A stretch of 64,000 bases of DNA from an uncultured Candidatus Rokubacteria bacterium (GCA_963826115.1 CAWGVS010000005.1:960001-1024000), one strand, 5' to 3'. Shown: positions 23,783-37,000, counted from the first letter of the stretch. Made by a program: numbers and translations. Notes: generated by a model not told the origin, from the letters alone.

Positions 23783-25540
23783 CTAGAAGCCCGTCTGGGA
23801 CTTGGCGGCCTTCGCCTTGACGTCCTTGTTGGGGCGCTCGAGGAGCATGTCCTTGTTCGCCCCGCCTGCCGGCACCATCGGGAAGCAGAACTCGTTCTTG
23901 TCGACCATCACGTCGACCAGGACGGGCCCGGGGATCGCGAACGCCTTCTCCAGCGCCGGCACCACCTCGTTCGGCTTCGACGCGCGGATGCCGACCGCCC
24001 CGTACGCCTCGGCCAGCTTGACGAAGTCGGGGCTCGCCGACAGGTCGATCGAGTGGAACCGGCCGCCGTAGATGATGTCCTGCCACTGGCGGACCATCCC
24101 GTGGCCGCCGTTGTTGATCACCACCGTCTTGATCGGGAGCTGGTTCTCGACGATCGTCGCGAGCTCCTGGGAGCTCATCACGAAGCTCCCGTCGCCGTCG
24201 ACGAGCACCACGAGCCGGTCCGGCCGTCCCACCTGAGCGCCGATGGCCGCCGGGAGCCCGTAGCCCATCGTCCCGAGCCCGCCAGAGGTCAGCCAGTGCC
24301 TCGGGTGGCGGAAGCGATAGTGCTGGGCCGCCCACATCTGGTGCTGCCCCACCCCGGTGACGATGATCGCCTCGCCCTTGGTGAGGTTGGAGATCTCCTC
24401 CACGACGTACTGGGGCTTGATCAGCTCGTCGTCCCAGTCGTAGCGGAACGGGTGCTTCTGGAGCCACTGGCCAAGCTGCCGAAGCCACTGCTCGCGCGCG
24501 TCCCGGACCGCGGCCCCGGCGGGGCCGGCGCTCTCCTGGCGGACGGCCTCGACCAGCTGGGCCAGCACCCTTCGGGCGTCGCCCACGATCGGCACGTGCA
24601 CCTTGATGTTCTTGGAGATCGAGGACGGGTCGACGTCGATGTGGATGATCTCCGCCTGCGGCGCGAACTGGTCGACCTTCCCGGTCACGCGGTCGTCGAA
24701 CCGGGCCCCCACGGCGATCAGGCAGTCCGCGTTGTAGACGGCCATGTTCGGCGCGTAGCCGCCGTGCATGCCGAGCATGCCGAGCGACAGCGGGTGGTCC
24801 GACGGGAACGCGCCCAGCCCCATGAGCGTGGTCGTCACGGGGATCCGCGTCATCTCGGCGAGCTCCCGGAGCTCTTTGGACGCGTCCGCCCCGATGACCC
24901 CGCCGCCGACGTACAGGACCGCGCGGCGCGCGCGCATCATCGCCTTCGCCGCCTTCTTCACTTGGCCCGGGTGCCCCTCGAACGTCGGGTTGTACGACCG
25001 GAGGTGGACTTTATCCGGGTACTCGAAGTCGGCCTGCTTCATCAGGACGTCCTTCGGCAGGTCGACGTGCACGGGACCGGGGCGGCCGGTGGCCGCGATG
25101 TGGAACGCCTCGCGGATCACCGGCGCGATGTCCTTGATGTCCTTCACGAGGTAGTTGTGCTTGGTGCACGGGCGCGTGATGCCGACGTTGTCGGCCTCCT
25201 GGAAGGCGTCGTTGCCGATGAGGTGCGTCGGCACCTGCCCCGTGAAGGCGACGATGGGCATCGAGTCCATGTACGCGTCCTGGAGGGCCGTGACCAGGTT
25301 GGTCGCCGCCGGACCGGACGTCACCATGCACACGCCCACCTTGCCGGTCACGCGGGCGTAGGCCTCGGCGGCATGGCCCGCCGCGGCCTCCTGACGGACC
25401 AGCACGTGGCGGAGGGGCCCCGGGAAGTCGTACAGGGCATCGTAGAGGGGAAGGACCGCCCCGCCGGGCAGCCCGAACACGACGTCCACACCCTCACGCT
25501 GAAGCGATTCCAGGACGATGCGCGCGCCTGACATCTTCAT
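23783..25540 (-). CDS. ilvB: Acetolactate synthase large subunit
   Basis: FGLPGGAVL, TSGPAATN, AFQEAD, GMHG, VGQHQMW, GDGSF..NNG; AGGAG RBS before ATG 25540. Confidence 0.96.
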   Translation of the reverse strand: MKMSGARIVLESLQREGVDVVFGLPGGAVLPLYDALYDFPGPLRHVLVRQEAAAGHAAEAYARVTGKVGVCMVTSGPAATNLVTALQDAYMDSMPIVAFTGQVPTHLIGNDAFQEADNVGITRPCTKHNYLVKDIKDIAPVIREAFHIAATGRPGPVHVDLPKDVLMKQADFEYPDKVHLRSYNPTFEGHPGQVKKAAKAMMRARRAVLYVGGGVIGADASKELRELAEMTRIPVTTTLMGLGAFPSDHPLSLGMLGMHGGYAPNMAVYNADCLIAVGARFDDRVTGKVDQFAPQAEIIHIDVDPSSISKNIKVHVPIVGDARRVLAQLVEAVRQESAGPAGAAVRDAREQWLRQLGQWLQKHPFRYDWDDELIKPQYVVEEISNLTKGEAIIVTGVGQHQMWAAQHYRFRHPRHWLTSGGLGTMGYGLPAAIGAQVGRPDRLVVLVDGDGSFVMSSQELATIVENQLPIKTVVINNGGHGMVRQWQDIIYGGRFHSIDLSASPDFVKLAEAYGAVGIRASKPNEVVPALEKAFAIPGPVLVDVMVDKNEFCFPMVPAGGANKDMLLERPNKDVKAKAAKSQTGF

Positions 25541-25671
25541 GGCCGGTCTCCTACTCTCCATGCGGCGTTACCCAACCCCTCGCCGTCGTGCTCGTCGGTT
25601 CCCGTGCCGCCGTCCGTGAAGTATCGGGCGGCGGTCGGCCTCCGCGTGGCGTCGCCGGCAGGTCGCAAAGT

Positions 25672-25707
25672 CTGATCAGGATAGCACCTAAACCCTGATC
25701 GGGTCAA
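25672..25707 (-). promoter_or_regulatory. ilvB promoter with palindromic sites
   Basis: TTGACC-N18-TATCCT with TG extension; CTGATCAG (25672-25679) and CCTGATCGG within or next to the promoter. Confidence 0.55.
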
Positions 25708-25747
25708 TCCGAAACGGGCTTGATGGGAAACGCGGGAGACCGGGCGG

Positions 25748-26512
25748 TCAGCGAGAGGGCCGGCGGGGGCGCCGCTCGGGGGGCGCGTCGGCGCGCCCCA
25801 CGACCAGGCGCTCGACGCCGACCAGGTGCGCCAGCATCGCCTGCTCGGCCTTGCGCGGGTCGCCGGACTCGACGGCCGTCAGGATGTGGCGGTGGTCGCC
25901 GTGCGAGCGCACGGGTCGGCCTGGCTGGGACAGGGACTCCTCCCGGCTCTGGGCGAGGAGGTCCATGAGGGTGGTGACGATCCGGGTGATCGCCCGGTTG
26001 TGGGTCGAGTGGGCAAGCGCGGTGTGGAACGCCGCGTCCTGGGTGAGTCCGGTCCGTCCCGCGGCGACCTCGGCCCCCTGCTGCTCGAGGATGCGGGCCA
26101 TGTCGGCCACCTCCTCGGAGCTCGCCCGGCGCGCGGCCAGGGCGGCGATGGGCGGTTCGAGGAGCCGGCGCGCCTCGTAGAGGTCGGCGATCGTCTCGCG
26201 CTGCGCGAGGATCACGAGGGCGAGCGGCTCGACCAGGGACTCCACCGAGACCTCCCGGACGAACGCGCCCTCCCCGGGGCGGATCCCGATGAGGCCACGG
26301 CTCTCGAGGGCCCGCATCGCTTCCCGCACCGAGGTCCGGCTGACCCGGAACCGCTCCGCCAGGTCGCGCTCCGGCGGGAGCCGGTCCCCGGACTTCAGGT
26401 GCCCGTCCGCGATCAGGAGACGGATCTGGCGGACGATCTCCTCGTAGATGCGGGTGCTTCGGACGGGCTCGAGGCTGGGCCAGTCGACGTCGGAGCTGCG
26501 ACGGCGCGCCAC
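25748..26512 (-). CDS. FadR-subfamily GntR regulator (PdhR/LldR/GlcC-like)
   Basis: GDRLPPERDLAERFRVSRTSVREA HTH; FCD domain DAAFH..HN..H. Confidence 0.92.
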   Translation of the reverse strand: MARRRSSDVDWPSLEPVRSTRIYEEIVRQIRLLIADGHLKSGDRLPPERDLAERFRVSRTSVREAMRALESRGLIGIRPGEGAFVREVSVESLVEPLALVILAQRETIADLYEARRLLEPPIAALAARRASSEEVADMARILEQQGAEVAAGRTGLTQDAAFHTALAHSTHNRAITRIVTTLMDLLAQSREESLSQPGRPVRSHGDHRHILTAVESGDPRKAEQAMLAHLVGVERLVVGRADAPPERRPRRPSR

Positions 26513-26528
26513 GATTCGGCCTCCCCGA

Positions 26529-27260
26529 TCAGCGGCTGGTTCCGGCGCGGACGGCGACCGCCGCTCGGCCGCGGCGCCGGGCCCACGCGCGCCCGACGAC
26601 GATGACGAGGATGGCCAGGGCCCCCTGGCACCCGCGCGTCACGACCGCGTTCGGATGGCCGCCGAGCCATCCCTGCACCATGCGGTCTCCGAGGATCATC
26701 TCGGCGGCCACCCAGCCGAGGATCGCGGCGCCGACGTCCACGATCCACCAGAAGCGCGCCATGAGACGCGCGAGCAGCCCGCTCCCCCAGATGACCAGCG
26801 GGATGGAGAGCCCCACGCCGAAGATGACCAGGACCATGTCCCCGTGCGCCGCACCGGAGATGGCGAGCACGTTGTCGAGGCTCATGATCACGTCGGCCAG
26901 CACGATGATCCAGATGGCCTCGAGGAGCGTGGTGCCGGACCGGACCGACTGGTGCTCCTCCGACTCGCCGTGGCCTTCCTGCGACAGCAGCTTCACCGCG
27001 ATCCAGACGAGGACCAGCCCTCCCACCGCCTGGAGGAGCGGGATCCGGAGGAGCACGCTGATGATCGCGATGAAGACGATGCGGAGCCCGACCGCGCCGA
27101 CCGTTCCCCACAGACGCCCCTGCCACTGCTGGTGCTTCGGGAGCTTCCGGACCGCCAGCGCGATCACGAGGGCGTTGTCGCCGGCGAGCGTGAGGTCGAG
27201 GATCACGATCTGGATCCAGCGGAACCAGAACTCGGTGGTGAGAAGCTCCGCCCAGTTCAC
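26529..27260 (-). CDS. TerC-family (YjbE-like) membrane protein
   Basis: DLTLAGDNALVIALA, LADVIMSLDNVLAI; GTGA overlap with the upstream gene. Confidence 0.88.
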   Translation of the reverse strand: MNWAELLTTEFWFRWIQIVILDLTLAGDNALVIALAVRKLPKHQQWQGRLWGTVGAVGLRIVFIAIISVLLRIPLLQAVGGLVLVWIAVKLLSQEGHGESEEHQSVRSGTTLLEAIWIIVLADVIMSLDNVLAISGAAHGDMVLVIFGVGLSIPLVIWGSGLLARLMARFWWIVDVGAAILGWVAAEMILGDRMVQGWLGGHPNAVVTRGCQGALAILVIVVGRAWARRRGRAAVAVRAGTSR

Positions 27261-28069
27261 CGGACAGGCCTCCGGAACACGCGGATCTCGTCCGACAGCC
27301 CCGCCACGCCCGGCACCTCGCGCGAGATGGCCAAGGCGGCCGCCCGTTCCCCTTCCGACGCCACGATGCCCACCAGCCGCACCTGTCCTTCCGTCGCGTG
27401 CACGTCGAGGTCCACCTGGGCCGTCAGCGGCGTCGCCTTCATGGTCGCGCGGACGCGCGCGGCAAGCGTGCGGTCGGCCAGCGCCTGCCGCGACGCCGTC
27501 GTGGCCCGGAACTCTGCCGCGTCGACCAGGTCCAGGACCTGTCGGACGGCCGTCGCCACACCGACGGTCTCCGTGTTGACGACGAGATCGTACAGGAGGG
27601 GGTCCGTCCAGTCGACATCGAACATCTGCCGCATGCGCGCCCGCACGCCGTCGTCGTACGCGGCGATGCGGCGCGCGGCCTCGTCGGCGTCGATGCCGTG
27701 GCGCTCCATCACCCGGCGCGCCCGCACGGCCGGCGGCGCGCAGACACGCACCCGCACCGCGTGCTGGATGCCGCGCAGGAACAAGGTCGACCAGCGGCCG
27801 ACCAGGACGACGCGATCCACCAGTGCCGCCTCGAGCACCGCCGCCTCGAGGTAGGCCCGGTACCGGAGCCGCGGCCGCCGGAAGCGCTCGACGAATCCCG
27901 GCGCCTCCTCGACCATCCCCACGAGGCGGGACTCCCGCACCCGGTACTCCCGCGCCGCGTCCCGCAGGATGTCGTTCCGCAGGAACTCGTAGCCGAGCCG
28001 CCGGGCCACCTCCTGGGCGATGGGCGAGCCGAGGCTCCCCATCTCCCGCGTCATCGCGACCACCGGCAT
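27257..28069 (-). CDS. Cytidylate-kinase-like protein with C-terminal BON domain
   Basis: TREMGSLG, VLVGRW, RVCAP..R, DPLLYDLVVNT; C-terminal DVHATEGQVRLVG..VPGV. Confidence 0.8.
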   Translation of the reverse strand: MPVVAMTREMGSLGSPIAQEVARRLGYEFLRNDILRDAAREYRVRESRLVGMVEEAPGFVERFRRPRLRYRAYLEAAVLEAALVDRVVLVGRWSTLFLRGIQHAVRVRVCAPPAVRARRVMERHGIDADEAARRIAAYDDGVRARMRQMFDVDWTDPLLYDLVVNTETVGVATAVRQVLDLVDAAEFRATTASRQALADRTLAARVRATMKATPLTAQVDLDVHATEGQVRLVGIVASEGERAAALAISREVPGVAGLSDEIRVFRRPVR

Positions 28070-28081
28070 GGCGGGCGTCCC

Positions 28082-29596
28082 TCAGCCGCGAGTGGCCTCG
28101 GACGGGCGGAGCCGAGGACGCCGCATCAGGGGACCGATGACGGGCAGGAGGAACAGCACGAGGGCCGCCAGGGTGATGGCCCCCGCGATCGGGCGGGTCG
28201 CGAAGATGAGCACCGACCCTTGGGACATGATGAGGCTCTGCCGGAGCGCGTTCTCGGCCAGGTCCCCCAGCACGAGCGCGAGCACGAGGGGCGCCAGCGG
28301 GTAGTCGAGCTTCTTGAACACGTACCCGAGAACGCCGAACCCGAGCATGTACCAGATGTCGAGCATGCTGTTGCTGACGGTGTACGCGCCGATCGCGCAG
28401 ACGAAGACGATCAGGGGCACGAGGACCGCGAACGGGATGCGGAGGATGGCGGCAAACGCCGGCACGAAGAAGAGGACCATCACGACGCCGATGACGTTGC
28501 CCGTGTACATGCTGGCGATCAGGCCCCACACGAACTCGGGCTTCTCCACGAAGAGCATCGGACCGGGCTGGAGGCCCCAGATCAGGAGGCCTCCCAGCAT
28601 GACCGCCGCGGTCGGGGACCCCGGAATGCCGAGGGTGATCATGGGCAGCATCGCCGCGACCCCCGCCGCGTGCGCGGCGGTCTCGGGAGCGACCACGCCC
28701 TCCAGGACCCCCGTGCCGAACTTCTCGGGGTGACGCGAGAACCGGCGCGCGAAGCCGTAGCTCATGAACGAGGCCGGAGTGGCGCCCCCTGGCTTGAACC
28801 CCATCCAGAAGCCGATCATCGCGCTGCGGATGAACGTCCGCCAGTAGCCGGCCAGCTCCCGCCACGTCGCCAGGATGTCCCGAAAGCGCACCCGCGGCGT
28901 GACGCCCCGGAAGTGGAGCCCTTCCTCCACGGTGAGGAAGATCTCGCCGAGGCCGAACAGTCCGATGACGGCCACGATGAACGAGACCCCGCGCATGAGC
29001 TCGACCGAGCCGAACGTCAGCCGGAGGCTGCCGGTGACCACGTCGAGACCGATCGCGCCCAGGATGAAGCCGAGGACGATGGACGCGAATGACTTGATCG
29101 GGCTGCCCCCGCCGAGCCCAATGAAGCTCGAGAAGGTCAGGAGCTGGATGGCGAAGAACTCGGGGGGACCGAACTTCAGCGCGATCTCGGCCAGCGGCTG
29201 GGCGAAGAATGACACGAGCAGGATGGCGAACAGCGCCCCGATGAACGACGAGGTGAAGGCGGCGGTGAGCGCCTGCGCCCCTTTCCCCTGCTTCGCCATC
29301 GGGTAGCCGTCCAGCGTCGTGGCGACGGACCACGGCTCGCCGGGGATGTTGAAGAGGATCGACGTGATGGCTCCGCCGAAGAGCGCCCCCCAGTAGATGG
29401 ACGTCAGCAGGATGATCGCCGACGTCGGCGGCATGGTGAACGTGAGGGGCAGGAGGATCGCCACCCCGTTCGCGCCTCCCAGCCCCGGGAGCACGCCGAT
29501 GATGGTCCCCAGCACGATCCCGATCACCGCCATGACGAGGTTGAACGGCGTGACGGCGATCTGGAAGCCGAGGAGGAGGTGCTCGATCCCGCTCAT
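28082..29596 (-). CDS. tctA: Tripartite tricarboxylate transporter TctA
   Basis: GVLPGLG, NIPGEP, DGYPMA, APETA, LGIPGSPTAA, LQPGP. Confidence 0.95.
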   Translation of the reverse strand: MSGIEHLLLGFQIAVTPFNLVMAVIGIVLGTIIGVLPGLGGANGVAILLPLTFTMPPTSAIILLTSIYWGALFGGAITSILFNIPGEPWSVATTLDGYPMAKQGKGAQALTAAFTSSFIGALFAILLVSFFAQPLAEIALKFGPPEFFAIQLLTFSSFIGLGGGSPIKSFASIVLGFILGAIGLDVVTGSLRLTFGSVELMRGVSFIVAVIGLFGLGEIFLTVEEGLHFRGVTPRVRFRDILATWRELAGYWRTFIRSAMIGFWMGFKPGGATPASFMSYGFARRFSRHPEKFGTGVLEGVVAPETAAHAAGVAAMLPMITLGIPGSPTAAVMLGGLLIWGLQPGPMLFVEKPEFVWGLIASMYTGNVIGVVMVLFFVPAFAAILRIPFAVLVPLIVFVCAIGAYTVSNSMLDIWYMLGFGVLGYVFKKLDYPLAPLVLALVLGDLAENALRQSLIMSQGSVLIFATRPIAGAITLAALVLFLLPVIGPLMRRPRLRPSEATRG

Positions 29597-29603
29597 CGCC
29601 CCC

Positions 29604-30068
29604 TCAGTACCCGAGCCGCGTCTCGAGCGGCCCCTTCGGCAACGGGACCAGGAACCACACCTCGAAGATCAGGAAGGTCACCACCGGGATCCCGATCGCG
29701 ACCAGCAGGGTCGTGATCCACCGGTGCCGGCCGATCCATCGCATGTAGCTGGCGAGGTAGAGCGCGCCGCTCACGTACAGCCCGAGGACGTGGGTGAGGA
29801 TCACCATGCCCACGGCGGGAAAGAAGACCGTGGCCACCGAGCGCATCTGCGGGCCGGTCACGAACCGCGCGGTCGGCGAGCCGCGCCGGACCGCTCCGAC
29901 CACCACGATGGCCGCGGAGGCGAGGAGGGCCGCGCCCAGGTAGAAGACGAAGAATCCGGGGCGCGGCCCGTCGGTGCTCCAGCGGATGCCGAGCCCGAGG
30001 CCCTCGACCATCACGACGGCCGCGACGACCGCCAGGACCACGCCGCAGACGATGTCAGCCGTGCGCAC
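29604..30068 (-). CDS. tctB: Tripartite tricarboxylate transporter TctB
   Basis: Four to five TM helices, GPRPGFF, FEVWFLVPLPKG. Confidence 0.88.
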   Translation of the reverse strand: MRTADIVCGVVLAVVAAVVMVEGLGLGIRWSTDGPRPGFFVFYLGAALLASAAIVVVGAVRRGSPTARFVTGPQMRSVATVFFPAVGMVILTHVLGLYVSGALYLASYMRWIGRHRWITTLLVAIGIPVVTFLIFEVWFLVPLPKGPLETRLGY

Positions 30069-30140
30069 GCGGCATCTCTCCTTGAGGGTCGTCAGGATCG
30101 CGGCGCCCCGCCGCGGGGACGAGGCGCCGCTTCGGTGCGA

Positions 30141-31142
30141 CTACTTGAGGAGACCTCCCTTGCCCATGAGGTCCTTGTGCAGGGCCTCCGCGCCTTCCAG
30201 CCACTTCACCAGCTCCGGCCCGGTCTGCCACGCGGGGTTGAGCGCGCCCTGCGCCAGGTACTCCTTGAACTCCGGGGTCCCGTAGACCTTCTGCAGCATG
30301 CCCTGGTAGAACGCGACGGCGTCCGCCGGCATGCTGGGCGCTCCGAAGATCCCCCGGAGCATGAGGTAGCTGATGTCCGCGCCGAGCGCTTCCTTGATCG
30401 TCGGGATGTCACCCCAGCCGGGCGCGGCCAGGCGCTTGGTGTCGAAGACGGCGAGCGGGCGCACGCGTCCGGCCTTGAGGTGGCCGGCGCACTCGATCGG
30501 GTTGTTCACGGTCGAGTCCACGTGGTTGCCCACGAGGTTCACGCACACCTCGCCTCCGCCCTTGAAGGGCACGTAGATGAACTTCACGCCGAGCGCCTGC
30601 TCGAGCAGGATCGTGATGATCTGGTCTTCCTGGGCGGCCCCGGTCCCGCCCATCTTCATCCTGCCGTCGCCGCCCGAGACCTCCTTGGCCGCCGCGATGT
30701 AGTCCTTGGCGATCTTGAAGTCCTTCTTGTCGGGCCGATCCGTGTTGACCCACAGGATGAACTCGTCGAGCGCGAGCCGCGCGACGGGCGTCAGATCCTT
30801 CCAGTTGAAGGGCACGCCGGTGTGGAGCGGCGTCGTGAAGAGGTTCGACAGCGTGATGATGATCGTGTGGGCGTCGCCCGACTTCGCCTTGACGTACGTG
30901 AAGCCCTCGGCGCCCGCGCCGCCGGCCTTGTTCACGACGACCAGGGGCCGGGGCGACAGCTTGTACTTGTCCACCAGGGGCGCGATCAGGCGCGCCATCT
31001 GGTCCGCGCCGCCACCCGTCCCCGCGGGGACGATGAACTCGACCGGCTTGGTCGGCTCCCACGCCTCCGCGGGCGCGACGCCACCCCCGACCAGAGCGAG
31101 TCCTAGGAGAGCCGCGGCGGCTGCCATCAGTCGCTGAACCAT
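30141..31142 (-). CDS. tctC: Tripartite tricarboxylate transporter substrate-binding protein TctC/Bug
   Basis: Signal peptide, WEPTKPVEFIVPAGTGGGAD, NKAGGAG, VPFKGGG. Confidence 0.93.
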   Translation of the reverse strand: MVQRLMAAAAALLGLALVGGGVAPAEAWEPTKPVEFIVPAGTGGGADQMARLIAPLVDKYKLSPRPLVVVNKAGGAGAEGFTYVKAKSGDAHTIIITLSNLFTTPLHTGVPFNWKDLTPVARLALDEFILWVNTDRPDKKDFKIAKDYIAAAKEVSGGDGRMKMGGTGAAQEDQIITILLEQALGVKFIYVPFKGGGEVCVNLVGNHVDSTVNNPIECAGHLKAGRVRPLAVFDTKRLAAPGWGDIPTIKEALGADISYLMLRGIFGAPSMPADAVAFYQGMLQKVYGTPEFKEYLAQGALNPAWQTGPELVKWLEGAEALHKDLMGKGGLLK

Positions 31143-31184
31143 GGAGCCTCCTTCGTTCGAGCGTTGGGACGCTTGGCCGGGCCC

Positions 31185-31224
31185 GGAACAACGAAAGGGG
31201 CCGCCAGCAGCCTGGCAGCCCCTT
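31185..31224 (-). terminator. Intrinsic terminator-like hairpin after the oxidoreductase genes
   Basis: Minus strand AAGGGGCTGCCAG-GCTG-CTGGCGGCCCCTT followed by TCGTTGTT. Confidence 0.5.
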
Positions 31225-31276
31225 CCGTCGCTACGACGACCGCAGTGTCATCGTCTCGATGTCGCGCGGTGCCGGT

Positions 31277-32302
31277 TCAGGTCGGCATGGGGATCTCCGC
31301 GGGCGCCTTGCGGAACGACACCACGCCCGGGATGTCCCAGTTCTCCCACATCTCGTCGACCTTGGCCTGGAAGTACGCGAGGTCCTCCTCGTTGAAGTGC
31401 GCGAAGCGGCCCTGCTTGAGGAGGTACTCGCGGACGGGCTTCCGCTTCCGGCCCTCCACGATGGCCTTGGTCTTGCCGTAGTACTTCACGACGCCGTCCT
31501 CGACCTCGTAGAGGGGGAAGATCCCGGTCTCGACCGCCAGCTCTCCGAGCTCGTGGGAGAGCATCGGGTCGTAGTCCCAGCCCTTCGGGCACGGGTCGAG
31601 GGAGTGGATGAAGGTTGGCCCACCGATGCTCAGCGCCCGGCGGACCTTGTTCATCATCTCCACGGCGTAGGATGCGCAGACCGTGGCCACGTAGCGGCAC
31701 TCCGGATGCCCGGCGGCCAGCATCCCCGCCATGTTCTTCTTCCAGCGCGTGTGGATGATCCGCTTGACGGCGCCGGGAGGGCTGAACGTCGTGTGGGCGC
31801 CGTACGGCGTCATCCCCGACAACTGGATGTCGGTGTTGGCGTAGGACTCGTTGTCGTAGAGCAGGATCAAGGAGTTGTACTCCTTGTGGGTCAGGGTGGC
31901 CGAGATGGCCCCGAGCCCCATGTCGGCTCCGCCGCCGTCTCCGCAGAACGCGATGACGTTGATGGGCTCGGCCTTCATCTTGCCCTTCTTCATGAGCGCC
32001 TTGAGGCCCGCCGCGGTGCCGAGCGCCGCCGACCCCGACGAGCCGAGCTGCGTGTGCATCCACGGCACCACCCACGGGGTGGTGTAGTACGTCGTGTTCG
32101 CGACGTACATGCATCCGGTGGAGCCCAGCACGATGGTGCGAGGCCCCGAGGCCTTCACCATCAGCTTCATCACCAGGGCCGATTCGCAGCCCTGGCAGGT
32201 CCGGTGACCCGAGGTGAAGTACTCCTCGATGGCGACCTTCTTGACGCCCTTGAAGGGCAGGAGGACCTGCGTGTCGTTGGTGAACGTCGTGGCGTCAGCC
32301 AT
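31277..32302 (-). CDS. oorB: 2-oxoacid:ferredoxin oxidoreductase beta subunit, oxalate-oxidoreductase-like
   Basis: GHRTCQGC, STGC, TPP-binding GDGG..DNESYANT, PCPKGW. Confidence 0.8.
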   Translation of the reverse strand: MADATTFTNDTQVLLPFKGVKKVAIEEYFTSGHRTCQGCESALVMKLMVKASGPRTIVLGSTGCMYVANTTYYTTPWVVPWMHTQLGSSGSAALGTAAGLKALMKKGKMKAEPINVIAFCGDGGGADMGLGAISATLTHKEYNSLILLYDNESYANTDIQLSGMTPYGAHTTFSPPGAVKRIIHTRWKKNMAGMLAAGHPECRYVATVCASYAVEMMNKVRRALSIGGPTFIHSLDPCPKGWDYDPMLSHELGELAVETGIFPLYEVEDGVVKYYGKTKAIVEGRKRKPVREYLLKQGRFAHFNEEDLAYFQAKVDEMWENWDIPGVVSFRKAPAEIPMPT

Positions 32303-32316
32303 GGTCTCCCTCTCCC

Positions 32317-33552
32317 CTACTCGCGAACGCCCAGCCAGTAGGTCGCCCGCTCCGCGCGGCCCTTGCCGGCCGCAGCGTAGCAGATGTCCACCGCCTTGTT
32401 CACGTCTTCGAGCGTGACCTCGCGCCCGCCCAGCCCGCAGATGAACCCGATCAGCGGCGGCCGGTGCTCCGCGTTGTAGAGCGCGGCGCGCACCTCGTTC
32501 GCGACGACGCCCGAGCCGAAAGGCGACCCGAACGAGTAGTCGCGGTCGATCACCCCGATTGCCTTCGCGGGCCCGAGCGCCCGCGCCAGTTGCTCGTACG
32601 GGAACGGCCGGAACCAGCGGAGACGGATGAGGCCGACCTTCTTCCCCTGCTTCCGCAGGCTGCGGATCGCGACCTTCACCGGCAGGGACAGCGTCCCCAT
32701 CCCCATGAGGATGATGTCGGCATCCTCGGTCATGTACTCCTCGAACCAGGGATTCTCGGGGCCCCGGCCGAAGACCCGGCGGAAGTCGGCGTACGCCTCC
32801 TCGATCACGCCGTAGGCGCGCTTGATCGCCTCGTCGTTCTGGCGCCGGATCTCGATGACCCAGTCCTCGTTGACCTGCGGGGCCACCGTGATCGGGTTGT
32901 CCGGGTGAAGCAGGAGGTCTCCCCGGTTGTACGGCGGGAGGAACTGCTTGACGCGCTCCTGGGTCGGGACCCGGGTGATGGTCTGGGAGTGGGTCAGGAA
33001 CGCCCCGTCGGCGGAAATCGCGATCGGCAGGAACACTCGCCGATCCTCCGCCACGCGGTAGGCGATGAGCGTCGTGTCGATCGCCTCCTGCGCGGTGTCG
33101 ATCCAGACGAGAAGCCACCCCAGGTCACGCACCGACAGCGCGTCGTTGTGCTCGACGCCGAACGCGCCGGGATCGTCCAGGGCCCGGTTTCCCACCAGCG
33201 CCACCATCGGCACGCGGAGCGCGGGCGTGACCGTGATCGCCTCCATGGCGTACATCCAGCCCACGCCGGAGGACCCGCAGAACACGCGCGCGCCCACGGT
33301 CGACGCGTGCTTCACGATCTCGAACTGGCTGTGCTCGCCCTCGGCCACGATGTACTCGGCCACGAGCTTGCCGTTGGCGATCTTCTTGGCGATCGCCTGC
33401 ATCACGGTGTCGTAGGGACGGATCGGATACGCCGTGACGACGTCGATGTCGGCCAGCGTCAGGCCTTCGGCGACGGCCTCGCTGCCCGAGATGAGCATCT
33501 CGGTTTCGTCGTGGACCGCCGCACCCCCGGCGGGCTTGGTCGCGACTGCCAT
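32317..33552 (-). CDS. oorA: 2-oxoacid:ferredoxin oxidoreductase alpha subunit, oxalate-oxidoreductase-like
   Basis: AYPIRPY (Arg in place of the PFOR YPITP Thr), EGEH, GSSGVG, NRALDDPG, FRPFP, GLGGR. Confidence 0.82.
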   Translation of the reverse strand: MAVATKPAGGAAVHDETEMLISGSEAVAEGLTLADIDVVTAYPIRPYDTVMQAIAKKIANGKLVAEYIVAEGEHSQFEIVKHASTVGARVFCGSSGVGWMYAMEAITVTPALRVPMVALVGNRALDDPGAFGVEHNDALSVRDLGWLLVWIDTAQEAIDTTLIAYRVAEDRRVFLPIAISADGAFLTHSQTITRVPTQERVKQFLPPYNRGDLLLHPDNPITVAPQVNEDWVIEIRRQNDEAIKRAYGVIEEAYADFRRVFGRGPENPWFEEYMTEDADIILMGMGTLSLPVKVAIRSLRKQGKKVGLIRLRWFRPFPYEQLARALGPAKAIGVIDRDYSFGSPFGSGVVANEVRAALYNAEHRPPLIGFICGLGGREVTLEDVNKAVDICYAAAGKGRAERATYWLGVRE

Positions 33553-33587
33553 GGACATCCTCCTCCGTCTGTTGGCGTTCGCCGGGG

Positions 33588-34865
33588 TCAGGCGCCCGGT
33601 GCTTCGGGCACGCCGGTCACGATCGACGCGGTGTCGTGCATGTGGCGCCGGGGCTCGACGCCCTTCGCCTTCGCGTTCTCACCGGGGATTCCCTCGATCA
33701 CCGGAGTGCCGCCCATCTCCAGCGGACCCTGGGACAGCTCCTCCTCGTACTGGCCGCGATACCGGAACCCGTGCGAGCGCACGGTGGTGACCTTGTCCTT
33801 GATCTTGTCGGCGGCCCAGACGCGGTACGAGTCCTTGTCCTGGCGCCACATCTCCCACTGGCTCTGGTTGTCGTCGAAGGCGGCCTCGTTCACCATCGTG
33901 ATGCAGTCCTTCACCGGGCACACCGCCTCGCACACTCCGCAGCCGCAGCACGCCTCCATGTTCGCGTCGTACAGCCCGTCCGGCGTCACGTCGAAGACGC
34001 TGTCCGGGCACTGGATCCAGCAGAGCGTGCACTTGACGCAGGTGTCGAAGTTCACGACCGGCCGCATCGTGCGCGTCGTGAACTTCTTGAAGTACGGGTT
34101 CCGCTCGGGCCGGTACCCCTTCCCGCCCTCGACCGGCTTGCCGACGGGGATCGCCGGGATCGTCAGGCCCTCCCGCATCTCCCACCACTTCGGCATCTCG
34201 AAGGAGAACGGCACCTCGTCGTTGCCCTCGGTGCTCTGGATCCGCCGGCCCTCGGCGCGCTCGTACGCTTTCCGCGCGGACTCGGCCTTCAGCTCCGAGC
34301 CCCACTCCGCCTCTCGGACGGCGGCGCAGACGGCATCGATGTCGAGGAACTCCGACGCGATCTTGGCCAGCGCCCCGAGGACCCGCGCCTCGGTGTGATC
34401 CTCCTTGAACACCCACAGCCCCGAGAACGACGCCTTCCCGGGCAGGATCCACAGGTGGTAGGGCGCGTCCTTCTTGTGGATGTCCCGCAGGAGCTCGCTC
34501 GGCGCTCGCGTCGACGTCACCATCAGGTGTCCACTCGGGAGCAGCAGGCGGTTGATCGGCTGGAGGCCGTACCACGCCCACGACTCCACGCCCTTGCAGA
34601 GCGTGTCGTCGACGCAGATGGTGACGTGGAGCTCCTTGGGCTCGTAGCGGGCCATGTGCTGCTCGAGCTCCTCCTTGGTGTCCGCCACGATCGCGAAGTC
34701 CTTGGCCGGGATGCCGTTCCGCTGCGGGCTGTCGCCGTAGCGCCCGAACGCGATGCCCCACCGCCCCGCCTTGCGGGAGGAGAGCACGATCCCGCGGGTG
34801 ATCCGCGCCGCCAGATTCTTCTGGAAGATGCCCCGGTAGACCACCTCGACGGTGAGATGCGCCAT
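33588..34865 (-). CDS. oorD: Fused gamma/ferredoxin (delta) subunit of the 2-oxoacid oxidoreductase
   Basis: RGIFQ..FGRYGDSPQRNGIP; two 4Fe-4S motifs CVKCTLCWIQCP and CCGCGVCEAVCP; GGAGG RBS. Confidence 0.8.
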   Translation of the reverse strand: MAHLTVEVVYRGIFQKNLAARITRGIVLSSRKAGRWGIAFGRYGDSPQRNGIPAKDFAIVADTKEELEQHMARYEPKELHVTICVDDTLCKGVESWAWYGLQPINRLLLPSGHLMVTSTRAPSELLRDIHKKDAPYHLWILPGKASFSGLWVFKEDHTEARVLGALAKIASEFLDIDAVCAAVREAEWGSELKAESARKAYERAEGRRIQSTEGNDEVPFSFEMPKWWEMREGLTIPAIPVGKPVEGGKGYRPERNPYFKKFTTRTMRPVVNFDTCVKCTLCWIQCPDSVFDVTPDGLYDANMEACCGCGVCEAVCPVKDCITMVNEAAFDDNQSQWEMWRQDKDSYRVWAADKIKDKVTTVRSHGFRYRGQYEEELSQGPLEMGGTPVIEGIPGENAKAKGVEPRRHMHDTASIVTGVPEAPGA

Positions 34866-34915
34866 GCACGGCCTCCTGCCGGCCCCGGGCAAGCCGGGGC
34901 GTGGTTGCGGTATGG

Positions 34916-34964
34916 TGGTCTGACCTCTCAACCGACGCTACCGGGTAAGCGCCACCCCTGTCAA
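34916..34964 (-). promoter_or_regulatory. Operon promoter and FadR-family operator
   Basis: TTGACA(34964-34959)-N18-TAGCGT(34940-34935); TGGTCTGACCT (34916-34926) is a 1-mismatch match to the TGGTCNGACCA FadR/PdhR/LldR-type palindrome. Confidence 0.65.
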
Positions 34965-35034
34965 CAGGCTTCGCCCGCCGACGGGACCCGGGAGTCCCGT
35001 GGCGGGCGCGCGGCTCCGCCGTCGGGCCGGCGGC

Positions 35035-35436
35035 CTAGCCCATCCCGCTCGCGCGCTCGGGCTGGATCTTGTAGATGACCCGCACCTCTCCGGCCCGGCG
35101 ATAGGGATAGCGGTCCTGGCCGAGGTACTTCTTGGCGAGGCTGTCGATGTGGGCGTCGCCCCCCTGCTCGGTGATCTCGACCACGCGGCCGAGGACGCCC
35201 AGGTAGCGGTAGGCGTTGGCCGGGTCGACGATCGACAGCGAGACGGCCGCGTTCCGCCGCATGTTGCGGTCCTTCACCCGCCCCTTCGCCGAGTTCACGC
35301 GGAAGAACTTCCCGTCGTAGTCGAACCAGACCGGAGTGACCTGGGGTCCCCCGTTCGGCATCACCGTTCCCAGGTGCGCCAGCACCTTCTGGTCGGTGGT
35401 CAGCAGGTCTCCGTACTTCTTCAGCGTGTCGTTCAT
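35035..35436 (-). CDS. PPOX-class (pyridoxamine 5'-phosphate oxidase-like, putative F420-dependent) oxidoreductase
   Basis: LGTVMPNGGPQVTPVW, KDRNMRRN, LAKKYLG. Confidence 0.88.
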   Translation of the reverse strand: MNDTLKKYGDLLTTDQKVLAHLGTVMPNGGPQVTPVWFDYDGKFFRVNSAKGRVKDRNMRRNAAVSLSIVDPANAYRYLGVLGRVVEITEQGGDAHIDSLAKKYLGQDRYPYRRAGEVRVIYKIQPERASGMG

Positions 35437-35469
35437 CTCGCTCCTCCCGATTCGGGCAGATTCGTCGCC

Positions 35470-36687
35470 TCAGGCCCCGGCCGCCCGGAGGGCCAGGTCC
35501 AGGGACGCCTTCAGGTCCTCCACCGCTTCGATCCCCACGGACAGTCGCACGAGCCCGGGACCGATGCCAAGCTTCGCGCGCTCGTCGTCGGACAGCGGTC
35601 GATGTGACGTCCTCGCCGGGTACGTCCAAGTCGTCGCGACGTCGCCGAAGCTCGGCGCGAACGCGATGAGCGGCTCGCCCTCCGGCGACCCCGCCTCGCG
35701 GGCCAGCACGCGGAACAGCCGCTCCACGGCCGCCGTGCCCCCGGCGAGCTCGAAGGACAGCATGCCACCGAAGCCGTCCGGGAGCAGCGTCCGGGCGAGC
35801 GCGTGCTGCGGATGTTGGGGCAAGCCCGGATAGTGGACGCGCGCCACCTCGGCGCGCCCGGCGAGGAACTCGGCCAGCGCGAGCGCGTTGGCCGAGTGAC
35901 GCTCCATGCGGAGCGCGAGCGTCCGCGCGCCGCGGAGCGTGAGCCAGGCGTCGAACGGCCCGAGGTTGAGACCGACCCGCACCGCCTGCGCCCGCGCGGC
36001 CTCGACGAGGGTCCGGGAGCCGACCAGCACTCCCGCCGTGACGTCGCCGTGGCCGGACAGGTACTTGGTCGCGCTGTGGTGCACCGCCGTGGCGCCGTGC
36101 TCGAGGGGGCGCAGGAGCGCGGGGGACGCGAACGTGCTGTCCACGAGGAGCGTCAGGTTCCGGTGGCGCGCGAGCGCCGCCAGCCGGGGCAGGTCCGCCA
36201 GACGCAGGAGCGGGTTGGACACCGCCTCGACCACGATGGCCCGCGTGGCCGCCGTCAGCGCCGCCTCCACCGAGGCCGGCTCCGTGGCGTCCGCGAAGGT
36301 CACGCCGATCCCCCACCGCGCCGCCTGCTCCCGGAGGAGCGCGGTGGTCGCGCCGTAGAGGTCCTGACCGGCGACGAGGTGGTCACCCGGCCGCAGGCCG
36401 CCGAGCAGGAACGCGCTCAGCGCGCCCATGCCCGACGCCACCACGAGCCCCGCCTCGCCCCCTTCGAGGGACGCGAGCGTGTTCTCGAGCATCGTGTGGT
36501 TCGGGGTCCCGAACCGGCCGTAGACGTACCCCGCTTCCCGCCCTTCCCAGACGGCGTCGACCTGCGCCATGTCGTCGAACACGTAGACGTTGGCCAGGTG
36601 GACGCTGGGGACCAGTGGCGTCGAGGCCGAACGGGGAGACGGCGCGGCCCGCGCGACCCGTGTCGCGAACCTGAGCGGCGCGCTCAC
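35470..36687 (-). CDS. Cys/Met metabolism PLP-dependent enzyme (cystathionine gamma-synthase / methionine gamma-lyase family)
   Basis: YVYGRFGTP, ASGMGA, LYGAT, DSTFASP, HSATKYLSGHGD, RLSVGIE. Confidence 0.92.
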   Translation of the reverse strand: MSAPLRFATRVARAAPSPRSASTPLVPSVHLANVYVFDDMAQVDAVWEGREAGYVYGRFGTPNHTMLENTLASLEGGEAGLVVASGMGALSAFLLGGLRPGDHLVAGQDLYGATTALLREQAARWGIGVTFADATEPASVEAALTAATRAIVVEAVSNPLLRLADLPRLAALARHRNLTLLVDSTFASPALLRPLEHGATAVHHSATKYLSGHGDVTAGVLVGSRTLVEAARAQAVRVGLNLGPFDAWLTLRGARTLALRMERHSANALALAEFLAGRAEVARVHYPGLPQHPQHALARTLLPDGFGGMLSFELAGGTAAVERLFRVLAREAGSPEGEPLIAFAPSFGDVATTWTYPARTSHRPLSDDERAKLGIGPGLVRLSVGIEAVEDLKASLDLALRAAGA

Positions 36688-37000
36688 CGGGGCTCCCGTA
36701 CGAACGCGGTGCCTGCGCTCCGTCCTTCGAGGGCAGTTCTTTCTGAGCGACGTTGCGCAACATTGCATTTAGATCGACACAACGGATACTTGGAACATGT
36801 CACCGGAGAGTCCTCCTCAGTGCGTGACGCTCATCGCGCGACACTGTGTGTTCTCGAGCGCTTCCAAGCGCCCGAGCGCTGAAAAACTTGGGCCCCTCCG
36901 GGCCCTGGCGTAAAGTGGGCGAGCTTTGGGGACCGGCCCTCCGCTGGGGGCCGCGGTCGCCGACGCGAGCGGTTCCTCGACGGACGGGATCAGAGGGTCG

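Follow-up and report, generated by a model that had tools for sequence, protein, structure and literature searches.

Of the acids that plants and fungi contribute to soil, oxalate is a major one. Among the enzymes described as acting on it, the oxalate oxidoreductase (OOR) of the acetogen Moorella thermoacetica (structures 5c4i, 5exd and 5exe) needs no coenzyme A (CoA), carries a YPIRP motif that is unique to this enzyme and whose Arg31 binds the charged substrate, and uses Arg31 together with Asp116, a residue important for the mechanism, in a 'bait and switch', as stated in PMC5020499. The review PMC13409138 describes the oxalyl-CoA reductase route of oxalotrophy and gives oxc, frc, oxdC and oxlT as the markers used in surveys; no mention of 'oxalate oxidoreductase' was found in it. 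Here we analyse a stretch of 64,000 nucleotides (hereafter the window) from an uncultured Candidatus Rokubacteria bacterium (GCA_963826115.1, CAWGVS010000005.1:960001-1024000), in which nine genes encode an OOR-like enzyme, a tripartite tricarboxylate transporter (TTT) system, two further proteins and a FadR-type regulator. We favour, with guarded confidence, the reading that this cluster imports oxalate via the TTT system, that a distinct enzyme of the OOR clade oxidises it and that a GntR-family repressor with an FCD domain (FCD-GntR) controls the genes. Gene calls and Pfam families, every one above its Pfam cut-off, confirmed the initial annotation of nine co-oriented genes, all of them on the minus strand at 25748..34964 of the window (Table 1).

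Comparison with solved structures places the enzyme next to the Moorella OOR. The alpha subunit has 5c4i_A as its best PDB match (E 1.9e-101), the nearest pyruvate:ferredoxin oxidoreductase (PFOR) chain being 9bt4_B (E 3.7e-61), and the beta subunit matches 5c4i_C with an E value of 9.6e-89 versus 3.3e-59 for 9bt4_C, its CxxC, GC and PCP cysteine positions and its GDG...N motif aligning to 5c4i_C. The gene first taken for a delta subunit does contain a ferredoxin domain, but it is really a fusion of a gamma (domain III) fold with that domain, and we refer to it as gd. Its residues 8-331 match the OOR delta chain 5c4i_B (E 3.7e-14), and Foldseek with an AlphaFold model of gd (19 orthologues; mean predicted local distance difference test score, pLDDT, 59, with only residues 1-215 well modelled) retrieved first the delta chains of 5c4i, 5exd and 5exe (E 6e-16) and next PorC gamma subunits (2raa, template-modelling score 0.79 on the target), a ranking which argues that gd is a gamma-ferredoxin fusion as in Moorella. 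Two CxxCxxCxxxCP motifs are invariant across 19 gd orthologues; the beta alignment and these motifs supply the thiamine pyrophosphate (TPP) site and the cysteines for three [4Fe-4S] clusters found in OOR. The three-subunit plan (alpha with domains I-II, beta with domain VI, and fused domains III and V) is likewise that of OOR, as judged from Pfam, PDB matches and the Foldseek search with the pLDDT-59 model. In several relatives gd and alpha form a single open frame of about 820-870 amino acids (L018:8723-11191, and also genomes G245, G108, G182, G188, G155 and G190, in which the fused frames around alpha span 808-869 amino acids), and these frames would be natural gene fusions or lost stop codons.

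Alignment of alpha to 5c4i_A confirmed the YPIRP motif of the initial annotation, Arg31 standing in place of the Thr of YPITP as in OOR, and the motif recurs in 78 of the 80 related loci, the remaining two being truncated. Arg125 of the window alpha corresponds to Moorella Arg109, the carboxylate-binding Arg common to 2-oxoacid:ferredoxin oxidoreductases (OFORs), and is invariant in the alignment. The switch loop reads ALDDPGAFG in the window type versus TLDPPGDFG in Moorella: all 80 relatives follow the pattern GNRALDDPGAFG[VTE]EH, whereas 5c4i_A and the Moorella-type representative P0134 (see below) have RTLDPPGDFG. Pro113 of Moorella is thus an Asp in the window type, which places a new Asp three positions before position 116 (ALDD) in 80/80 relatives.

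The phylogeny of alpha points in the same direction. A search with alpha against 1.84 billion representatives yielded 3944 matches at E <= 0.001. Among the matches listed, 8 of 104 representatives of at least 360 amino acids carry [YF]PIRP, top-scoring ones included, and the other pattern-matching representatives have mostly YPITP or FPITP and, in a few cases, YPISP or other variants. One of the [YF]PIRP proteins, P0134, is a Moorella-type representative (5c4i_A, E 1.4e-152, Asp116 kept) and is 41% identical to the window alpha. A quick IQ-TREE analysis of 64 rows (the first 55 representatives with 360 or more amino acids, together with the window and 8 locus sequences, leaving out P0121, P0133, P0136, P0137, P0143 and P0161 as partial or odd, all shorter rows and the lower-scoring rest) united the 14 [YF]PIRP rows, Moorella-type ones among them, in one clade versus the 50 YPITP-type rows, with a support of 100 in the SH-like approximate likelihood-ratio test (SH-aLRT). 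Within this clade, P0134, P0206 and P0208 are sister to a group in which P0132 branches beside P0122, the Acidobacteria rows and the Rokubacteria rows that include the window. For alpha, and by this quick method, the enzyme therefore groups apart from the PFOR and 2-oxoisovalerate oxidoreductase (VOR) types as an OOR does. The window enzyme belongs, by its alpha subunit, to the OOR clade, sister to the Moorella-type subclade and not an OOR equivalog.

The tie between enzyme, transporter and regulator is conserved among relatives. Linkage was determined by tblastn of the window proteins on 80 loci, each gene being counted only in loci long enough (for TctC, loci of the Rokubacteria type with 2.4 kb or more of sequence downstream of alpha). 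We found gd in 64/64 loci and beta in 73/74; TctC follows beta in 64/64 Rokubacteria-type loci, TctB is present in 63/64 loci and TctA in 58/58, and the GntR/FCD regulator lies beyond the TTT genes in 51/51 Rokubacteria-type loci. All Rokubacteria-type loci of sufficient length preserve the order gd-alpha-beta-tctCBA-FCD regulator, so that the linkage proposed at the outset held up for enzyme, TTT system and regulator, but TerC (37/51 loci) and the Cmk-BON protein (5/51) are not constant parts and appear to be optional passengers. In seven other loci (five from Acidobacteria, plus L019 and L032) the regulator gene immediately precedes the enzyme genes (7/7), and TTT genes are absent. In four Rokubacteria loci (L010, L011, L058 and L076) the TTT genes after beta are divergent (TctC 36-46% and TctA 53-65% identity versus 66-92% and 74-94% in the other Rokubacteria loci), which suggests another TTT lineage in the same slot.

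At the level of the phylum, alpha is present in 181/251 genomes and in 83/104 high-quality ones (E <= 1e-60; the tallies include four genomes flagged unpublished, G217, G218, G034 and G044, all matching), with one family having it in 1/20 genomes. Relatives at 79-99% identity come from Rokubacteria/Methylomirabilota metagenome-assembled genomes, where they are labelled pyruvate ferredoxin oxidoreductase (alpha subunit), and Acidobacteriota records hold copies at 70-73% identity. Eleven contigs whose alpha is about 80-86% identical are filed under other taxa (L009, L017, L019, L029, L032, L033, L044, L055, L057, L059 and L066, with labels that include Acidimicrobiia, Binatia, Thermodesulfobacteriota, Verrucomicrobiia, Nitrosocosmicus, Vicinamibacterales, Acidoferrum and Limnocylindria); all those of sufficient length show Rokubacteria-like synteny, and the odd labels are probably binning errors rather than gene transfer.

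The genome to which the window belongs (6.24 Mb in 12 contigs, 99% complete) holds a single copy of each enzyme subunit, a second, KorA-like OFOR being encoded elsewhere. TctC, TctB and TctA are encoded together and all exceed their Pfam cut-offs, as expected of a TTT system. The best PDB match of TctC is 4x9t (E 1.3e-29, full-length), whose name gives no ligand, and 25hk is also near. Only 4 TctC and 5 TctA hits occur in this genome, and it has no OxlT, frc or oxc above the cut-offs; because no OxlT reaches its cut-off and TTT systems are few, the TTT system is the only transporter tied to the enzyme.

The strongest evidence on the substrate is the gene context in relatives, and it favours oxalate. 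In the Acidobacteriaceae locus L079, one strand carries genes for a malate-synthase-like protein, a class-V aminotransferase (best model BhcA, below its cut-off), an acyl-CoA ligase, a PanE-like reductase, a GntR/FCD regulator, gd, alpha, beta and a major facilitator superfamily (MFS) protein, and this last protein, directly after beta, scores 475.4 bits on the oxalate/formate antiporter model TIGR04259 (cut-off 335). Beta is likewise followed by an OxlT homologue in L074 and L080; L075 has none, and L077 is too short to tell. In the Rokubacteria-type locus L025 an OxlT fragment (457.1 bits) occupies the exact tctC slot after beta. Across the phylum OxlT exceeds its cut-off in 16/251 genomes, and by coordinates it adjoins alpha in G153, G122 and G017.

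A metagenome scan with P0134 extended this context to the Moorella type, yielding 80 Moorella-type loci from soil (L098-L177). GntR/FCD was found in 40 of them, OxlT in 22 and the combination of ligase, PanE and GntR in 9, with no TTT or TerC gene in any of the 80; in the 21 loci of at least 14 kb the counts are 21/21 for GntR and 13/21 for OxlT. The ligase, PanE and GntR proteins of these loci are 80-89% identical to their L079 counterparts, which argues that one kind of cluster holds either enzyme type. A PanE homologue is said to be the oxalyl-CoA reductase of Methylorubrum. Window-type and Moorella-type gene sets even lie side by side on one contig in L171 and L173-L175, each set in L174 and L175 having its own GntR/FCD gene. 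A different arrangement precedes alpha in L136 (3202-7987), where a CDC48-like double-AAA ATPase (764 amino acids), a separate POR gamma subunit (215 amino acids) and a GltD-like protein of 610 amino acids with Fer4_20 and Pyr_redox_2 domains occupy the place of the Moorella fused delta; this gene set may point to soil bacteria with an OOR form that is linked to NAD(P).

In the mechanism that we propose, TctC would bind oxalate in the periplasm and TctBA would import it. By homology to the Moorella enzyme, the TPP/[4Fe-4S] complex of alpha, beta and the fused gamma and delta domains would then oxidise oxalate to two CO2 without CoA, releasing two low-potential electrons that three clusters would relay to a ferredoxin-type acceptor. 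Until its effector appears, the FCD-GntR protein, whose gene closes the cluster, would act on a TGGTCnGACCA operator to repress the conserved promoter.

The initial annotation had an OOR-like enzyme, a TTT system and a FadR-type regulator, with oxalate or a related acid as the substrate, a reading to which the alpha tree, OxlT in the tctC position, the Acidobacteria cluster and the conserved order lend support, but which has to be set against a number of contrary observations. Asp116 is replaced by Ala in 80/80 relatives, a departure from OOR. The best NCBIfam models for all three subunits are the OOR equivalogs (NF045790-NF045792), and none of the subunits reaches the equivalog cut-off: alpha scores 376.7 bits on NF045791 (cut-off 500), beta 348.4 bits on NF045792 (cut-off 590) and gd 75.9 bits on the delta model (cut-off 230). 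The C-terminal extension of gd, some 95 amino acids conserved among its orthologues, is absent from Moorella, and a Pfam scan gave no match to its N-terminal domain. On the side of transport, the PDB relatives of TctC gave no clue to a ligand, no described oxalate TTT system was found in the literature searched, as judged from titles and abstract starts, the L079 antiporter also exceeds the L-lactate MFS cut-off (325.5 versus 320 bits, the lower score of the two), and between the enzyme genes and tctC lies a terminator-like hairpin. No electron sink was found in the genome, in the form of either Rnf or RuBisCO, and the NiFe hydrogenase family gave two short N-terminal matches there. Moreover, because the compared loci are relatives, the linkage counts are not independent events, and the presence of two enzyme types side by side could mean different substrates. 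Much of this would also fit an OOR-clade enzyme that acts on another small acid with a charged or polar C2 group, such as glyoxylate, oxamate, mesoxalate or a similar compound, which the TTT system would import, the changed switch loop and the divergent gamma domain marking the change of substrate. The loss of Asp116, the three scores below the cut-offs, the loci with both types and a GntR gene for each, and the L079 cluster with its centre on glyoxylate-handling enzymes (malate-synthase-like protein and BhcA-like aminotransferase) all speak for such an acid. We nevertheless regard it as unlikely, since Arg31 and Arg109 are kept, the window type replaces the Moorella type in the same ligase-PanE-GntR...OxlT cluster, antiporters above a curated OxlT cut-off directly follow beta, and the loop Asp113 (ALDD) could substitute for Asp116.

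A further possibility, which we rate as improbable, leaves oxalate as the substrate of the enzyme but makes the TTT system a conserved neighbour with its own transcript and another carboxylate as ligand, oxalate entering the cell otherwise. The hairpin with its T-tract in the 134-nt gap between beta and tctC would fit this arrangement, as would the different lineage suggested by the divergent TctC of L010, L011, L058 and L076, and the Acidobacterial loci without TTT genes. Among the metatranscriptome contigs listed, none bridges the beta-tctC junction, unlike gd-alpha and alpha-beta, an absence that we do not elsewhere take as evidence. Against it stand the invariable position of tctC after beta and of the regulator beyond the TTT genes, which frames them as one unit, the use of the exact tctC slot by OxlT in L025, and a genome with few TTT systems and no OxlT above the cut-off. 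That the enzyme is an ordinary PFOR, as public annotations have it, has only a very slim chance of being right. Besides the names given to relatives in the sources, the PorA_Arch model matches alpha with 333.9 bits, and within the taxonomic order the gene occurs almost universally and is strongly conserved, as befits a core enzyme; yet this score is below both the model's cut-off (550) and the OOR-model score, the Thr of YPITP is an Arg, the tree separates alpha from every YPITP-type row, the fused gamma and delta subunit is common to OOR, and the context is that of an oxalate antiporter. We therefore retain oxalate, imported via the TTT system, as the favoured reading.

The regulator, with its GntR winged helix and FCD domain, belongs to the FadR subfamily; it reaches no NCBIfam equivalog, the best being NanR (151 bits, cut-off 260). 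The claim that a single promoter-like site precedes all nine genes stood in part. The TTGACA box upstream of gd is followed by a weak -10-like element, on account of which a promoter consensus scan did not list the site, but alignment of the 140 nt before gd in 63 sequences, 56 of them Rokubacteria-type, revealed TTGACA in 47/56 Rokubacteria-type regions. The palindrome NGGTCNGACCN, whose family form is mostly TGGTC[ACG]GACCA, is found in 51/56 of these regions, and both elements in 46; the palindrome starts 30-32 nt after the start of TTGACA in 32/46, the distance in the window being 38 nt. FadR-type operators have the form TGGTnnnACCA, which the palindrome resembles. Within the window alone the palindrome is not above chance (1 match versus 2.08 expected), and the region has no excess of terminator-like sites (3 found, 2.4 expected). 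Given the hairpin and T-tract between beta and tctC, the nine genes may or may not form a single transcript. Contigs from soil metatranscriptomes (4 runs from 3 studies) that are 90-99% alike, mostly 90-95%, align to gd, alpha, beta and tctC and run across the gd-alpha and alpha-beta junctions; most derive from relatives, and neither level, strand nor a single transcript can be read from them.

Intergenic gaps within the cluster are 5-29 nt, except for beta to tctC and for tctC to tctB (72 nt). The window has a G+C content of about 72% and accordingly contains many spurious open frames. Upstream, on the same strand (35035-36768), lie genes for an F420-dependent PPOX-class protein (TIGR03618, above its cut-off) and a pyridoxal-phosphate (PLP) enzyme of Cys/Met metabolism, which we place outside the system because only the closest relatives (L001, L002, L004-L007 and L078) retain them. 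Downstream of the nine genes are ilvB, ilvN and ilvC. The only site that meets the promoter-scan criteria (TTGACC, 18 nt, TATCCT, with TG) is at 25678-25707 on the minus strand, within the 186 nt that separate ilvB from the regulator gene, so that ilvBNC probably have their own transcript start.

Among the accessory genes, the TerC protein exceeds the cut-off of its TIGR03717 family. The role in metal handling once suggested for it gained no support. TerC is optional, and no Mn riboswitch or other Rfam family was found in 24000-37000 (E <= 0.1). The Cmk-BON protein has two paralogues at 37-38% identity in the window's genome (G000 C4:201970-202755 and C10:407070-407861). For the ligase, PanE-like reductase and malate-synthase proteins of L079, the best matches in the window's genome lie elsewhere and are 31-35% identical.

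Table 1. Features of the cluster and its upstream region, in window coordinates
Feature	Position	Strand	Remarks
Gamma+delta-like subunit (gd)	33588-34865	-	425 amino acids; Fer4_21 at residues 271-324
Alpha subunit (domains I-II)	32317-33558	-	POR_N + PFOR_II; YPIRP, Arg125, switch loop ALDDPGAFGVEH
Beta subunit (domain VI; TPP site, proximal cluster cysteines)	31277-32302	-	TPP_enzyme_C
TctC-type periplasmic binding protein, candidate oxalate receptor	30141-31142	-	PF03401, 93.7 bits
TctB small membrane subunit	29604-30068	-	PF07331, 64.1 bits
TctA large membrane subunit	28082-29596	-	PF01970, 499.5 bits
Cytidylate_kin2 + BON protein (Cmk-BON), accessory	27257-28069	-	PF13189 + PF04972
TerC/YjbE-family membrane protein	26529-27260	-	TIGR03717, 218.6 bits versus cut-off 134.8
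GntR-family regulator with FCD domain (FadR subfamily)	25748-26512	-	PF00392, 77.9 bits; PF07729, 102.1 bits
TTGACA, -35-like	34959-34964	-	18-nt spacer, then weak -10-like TAGCGT at 34935-34940
Palindrome AGGTCAGACCA	34916-34926	-	Candidate operator for the FCD-GntR regulator
GC-rich hairpin + TTTCGTTGTT (T-tract), terminator- or attenuator-like	~31187-31222	-	Between beta and tctC

A broader proposal can be put forward tentatively, and we think it possible rather than probable: Rokubacteriales, an uncultured lineage abundant in soil, would be unrecognised oxalate consumers, with the first oxalate TTT system and an OOR variant that dispenses with CoA, in which the loop Asp is relocated and the ferredoxin subunit carries a C-terminal extension perhaps shielding the clusters from oxygen, and the enzyme would be a near-universal, strongly conserved source of low-potential reductant and a major oxalate sink missed by frc, oxc and oxlT markers. 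If true, two dominant soil phyla would gain an oxalate sink, the range of OOR would no longer be confined to anaerobic acetogens, oxalate would join the substrates of the TTT family, and the altered loop would provide a natural experiment for studying the 'bait and switch' of OOR. The proposed route lies outside the scope of gene-marker surveys of soil oxalate turnover, and it would matter for soil carbon cycling, OFOR mechanism and TTT specificity. In the literature searched, no paper mentioned oxalate oxidoreductase together with Acidobacteria, YPIRP appeared as this motif in a single paper, and among the matches listed no overlap was found between papers that mention both Rokubacteria and oxalate and those that mention oxalate oxidoreductase.

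Of the known systems, the M. thermoacetica OOR shares with the window enzyme the three subunits, including the fused domain III and ferredoxin, the YPIRP/Arg31, Arg109, Asp112 and Phe117 residues, the TPP motif, the cysteines for three [4Fe-4S] clusters and the [YF]PIRP clade. The window type differs in belonging to the sister subclade, in the changes of Asp116 to Ala and of Pro113 to Asp, in its scores below the equivalog cut-offs, in a gd N-terminal domain barely recognisable by sequence, in the extra C-terminal residues of gd, and in its host, a soil phylum with a TTT importer rather than an acetogen. The Acidobacteria-like Moorella-type clusters from soil resemble it in the GntR/FCD gene beside the enzyme and in the link to an oxalate transporter, and in one and the same cluster the window type can stand either instead of the Moorella type or beside it; these clusters are unlike the window's in the separate gamma of L136 and in having no TTT genes. 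The four-subunit PFOR of Methanosarcina acetivorans (9bt4) has the same fold and cofactor set, and its alpha, beta and delta subunits align along their length, whereas its YPITP motif, separate gamma and delta subunits, lower scores and separate clade set it apart. With described TTT systems (TctCBA; Bug, TphC and AdpC-type) the transporter shares the three Pfam families and a TctC that aligns full-length to solved TTT binding proteins, oxalate as the presumed ligand being the difference. OxlT with frc/oxc (Oxalobacter-type) and the oxalyl-CoA reductase routes have oxalate as presumed substrate in common with the cluster, and OxlT, the acyl-CoA ligase and the PanE-like reductase are encoded beside the enzyme in relatives, whereas the route proposed here would be independent of CoA and would yield only CO2 and reductant.

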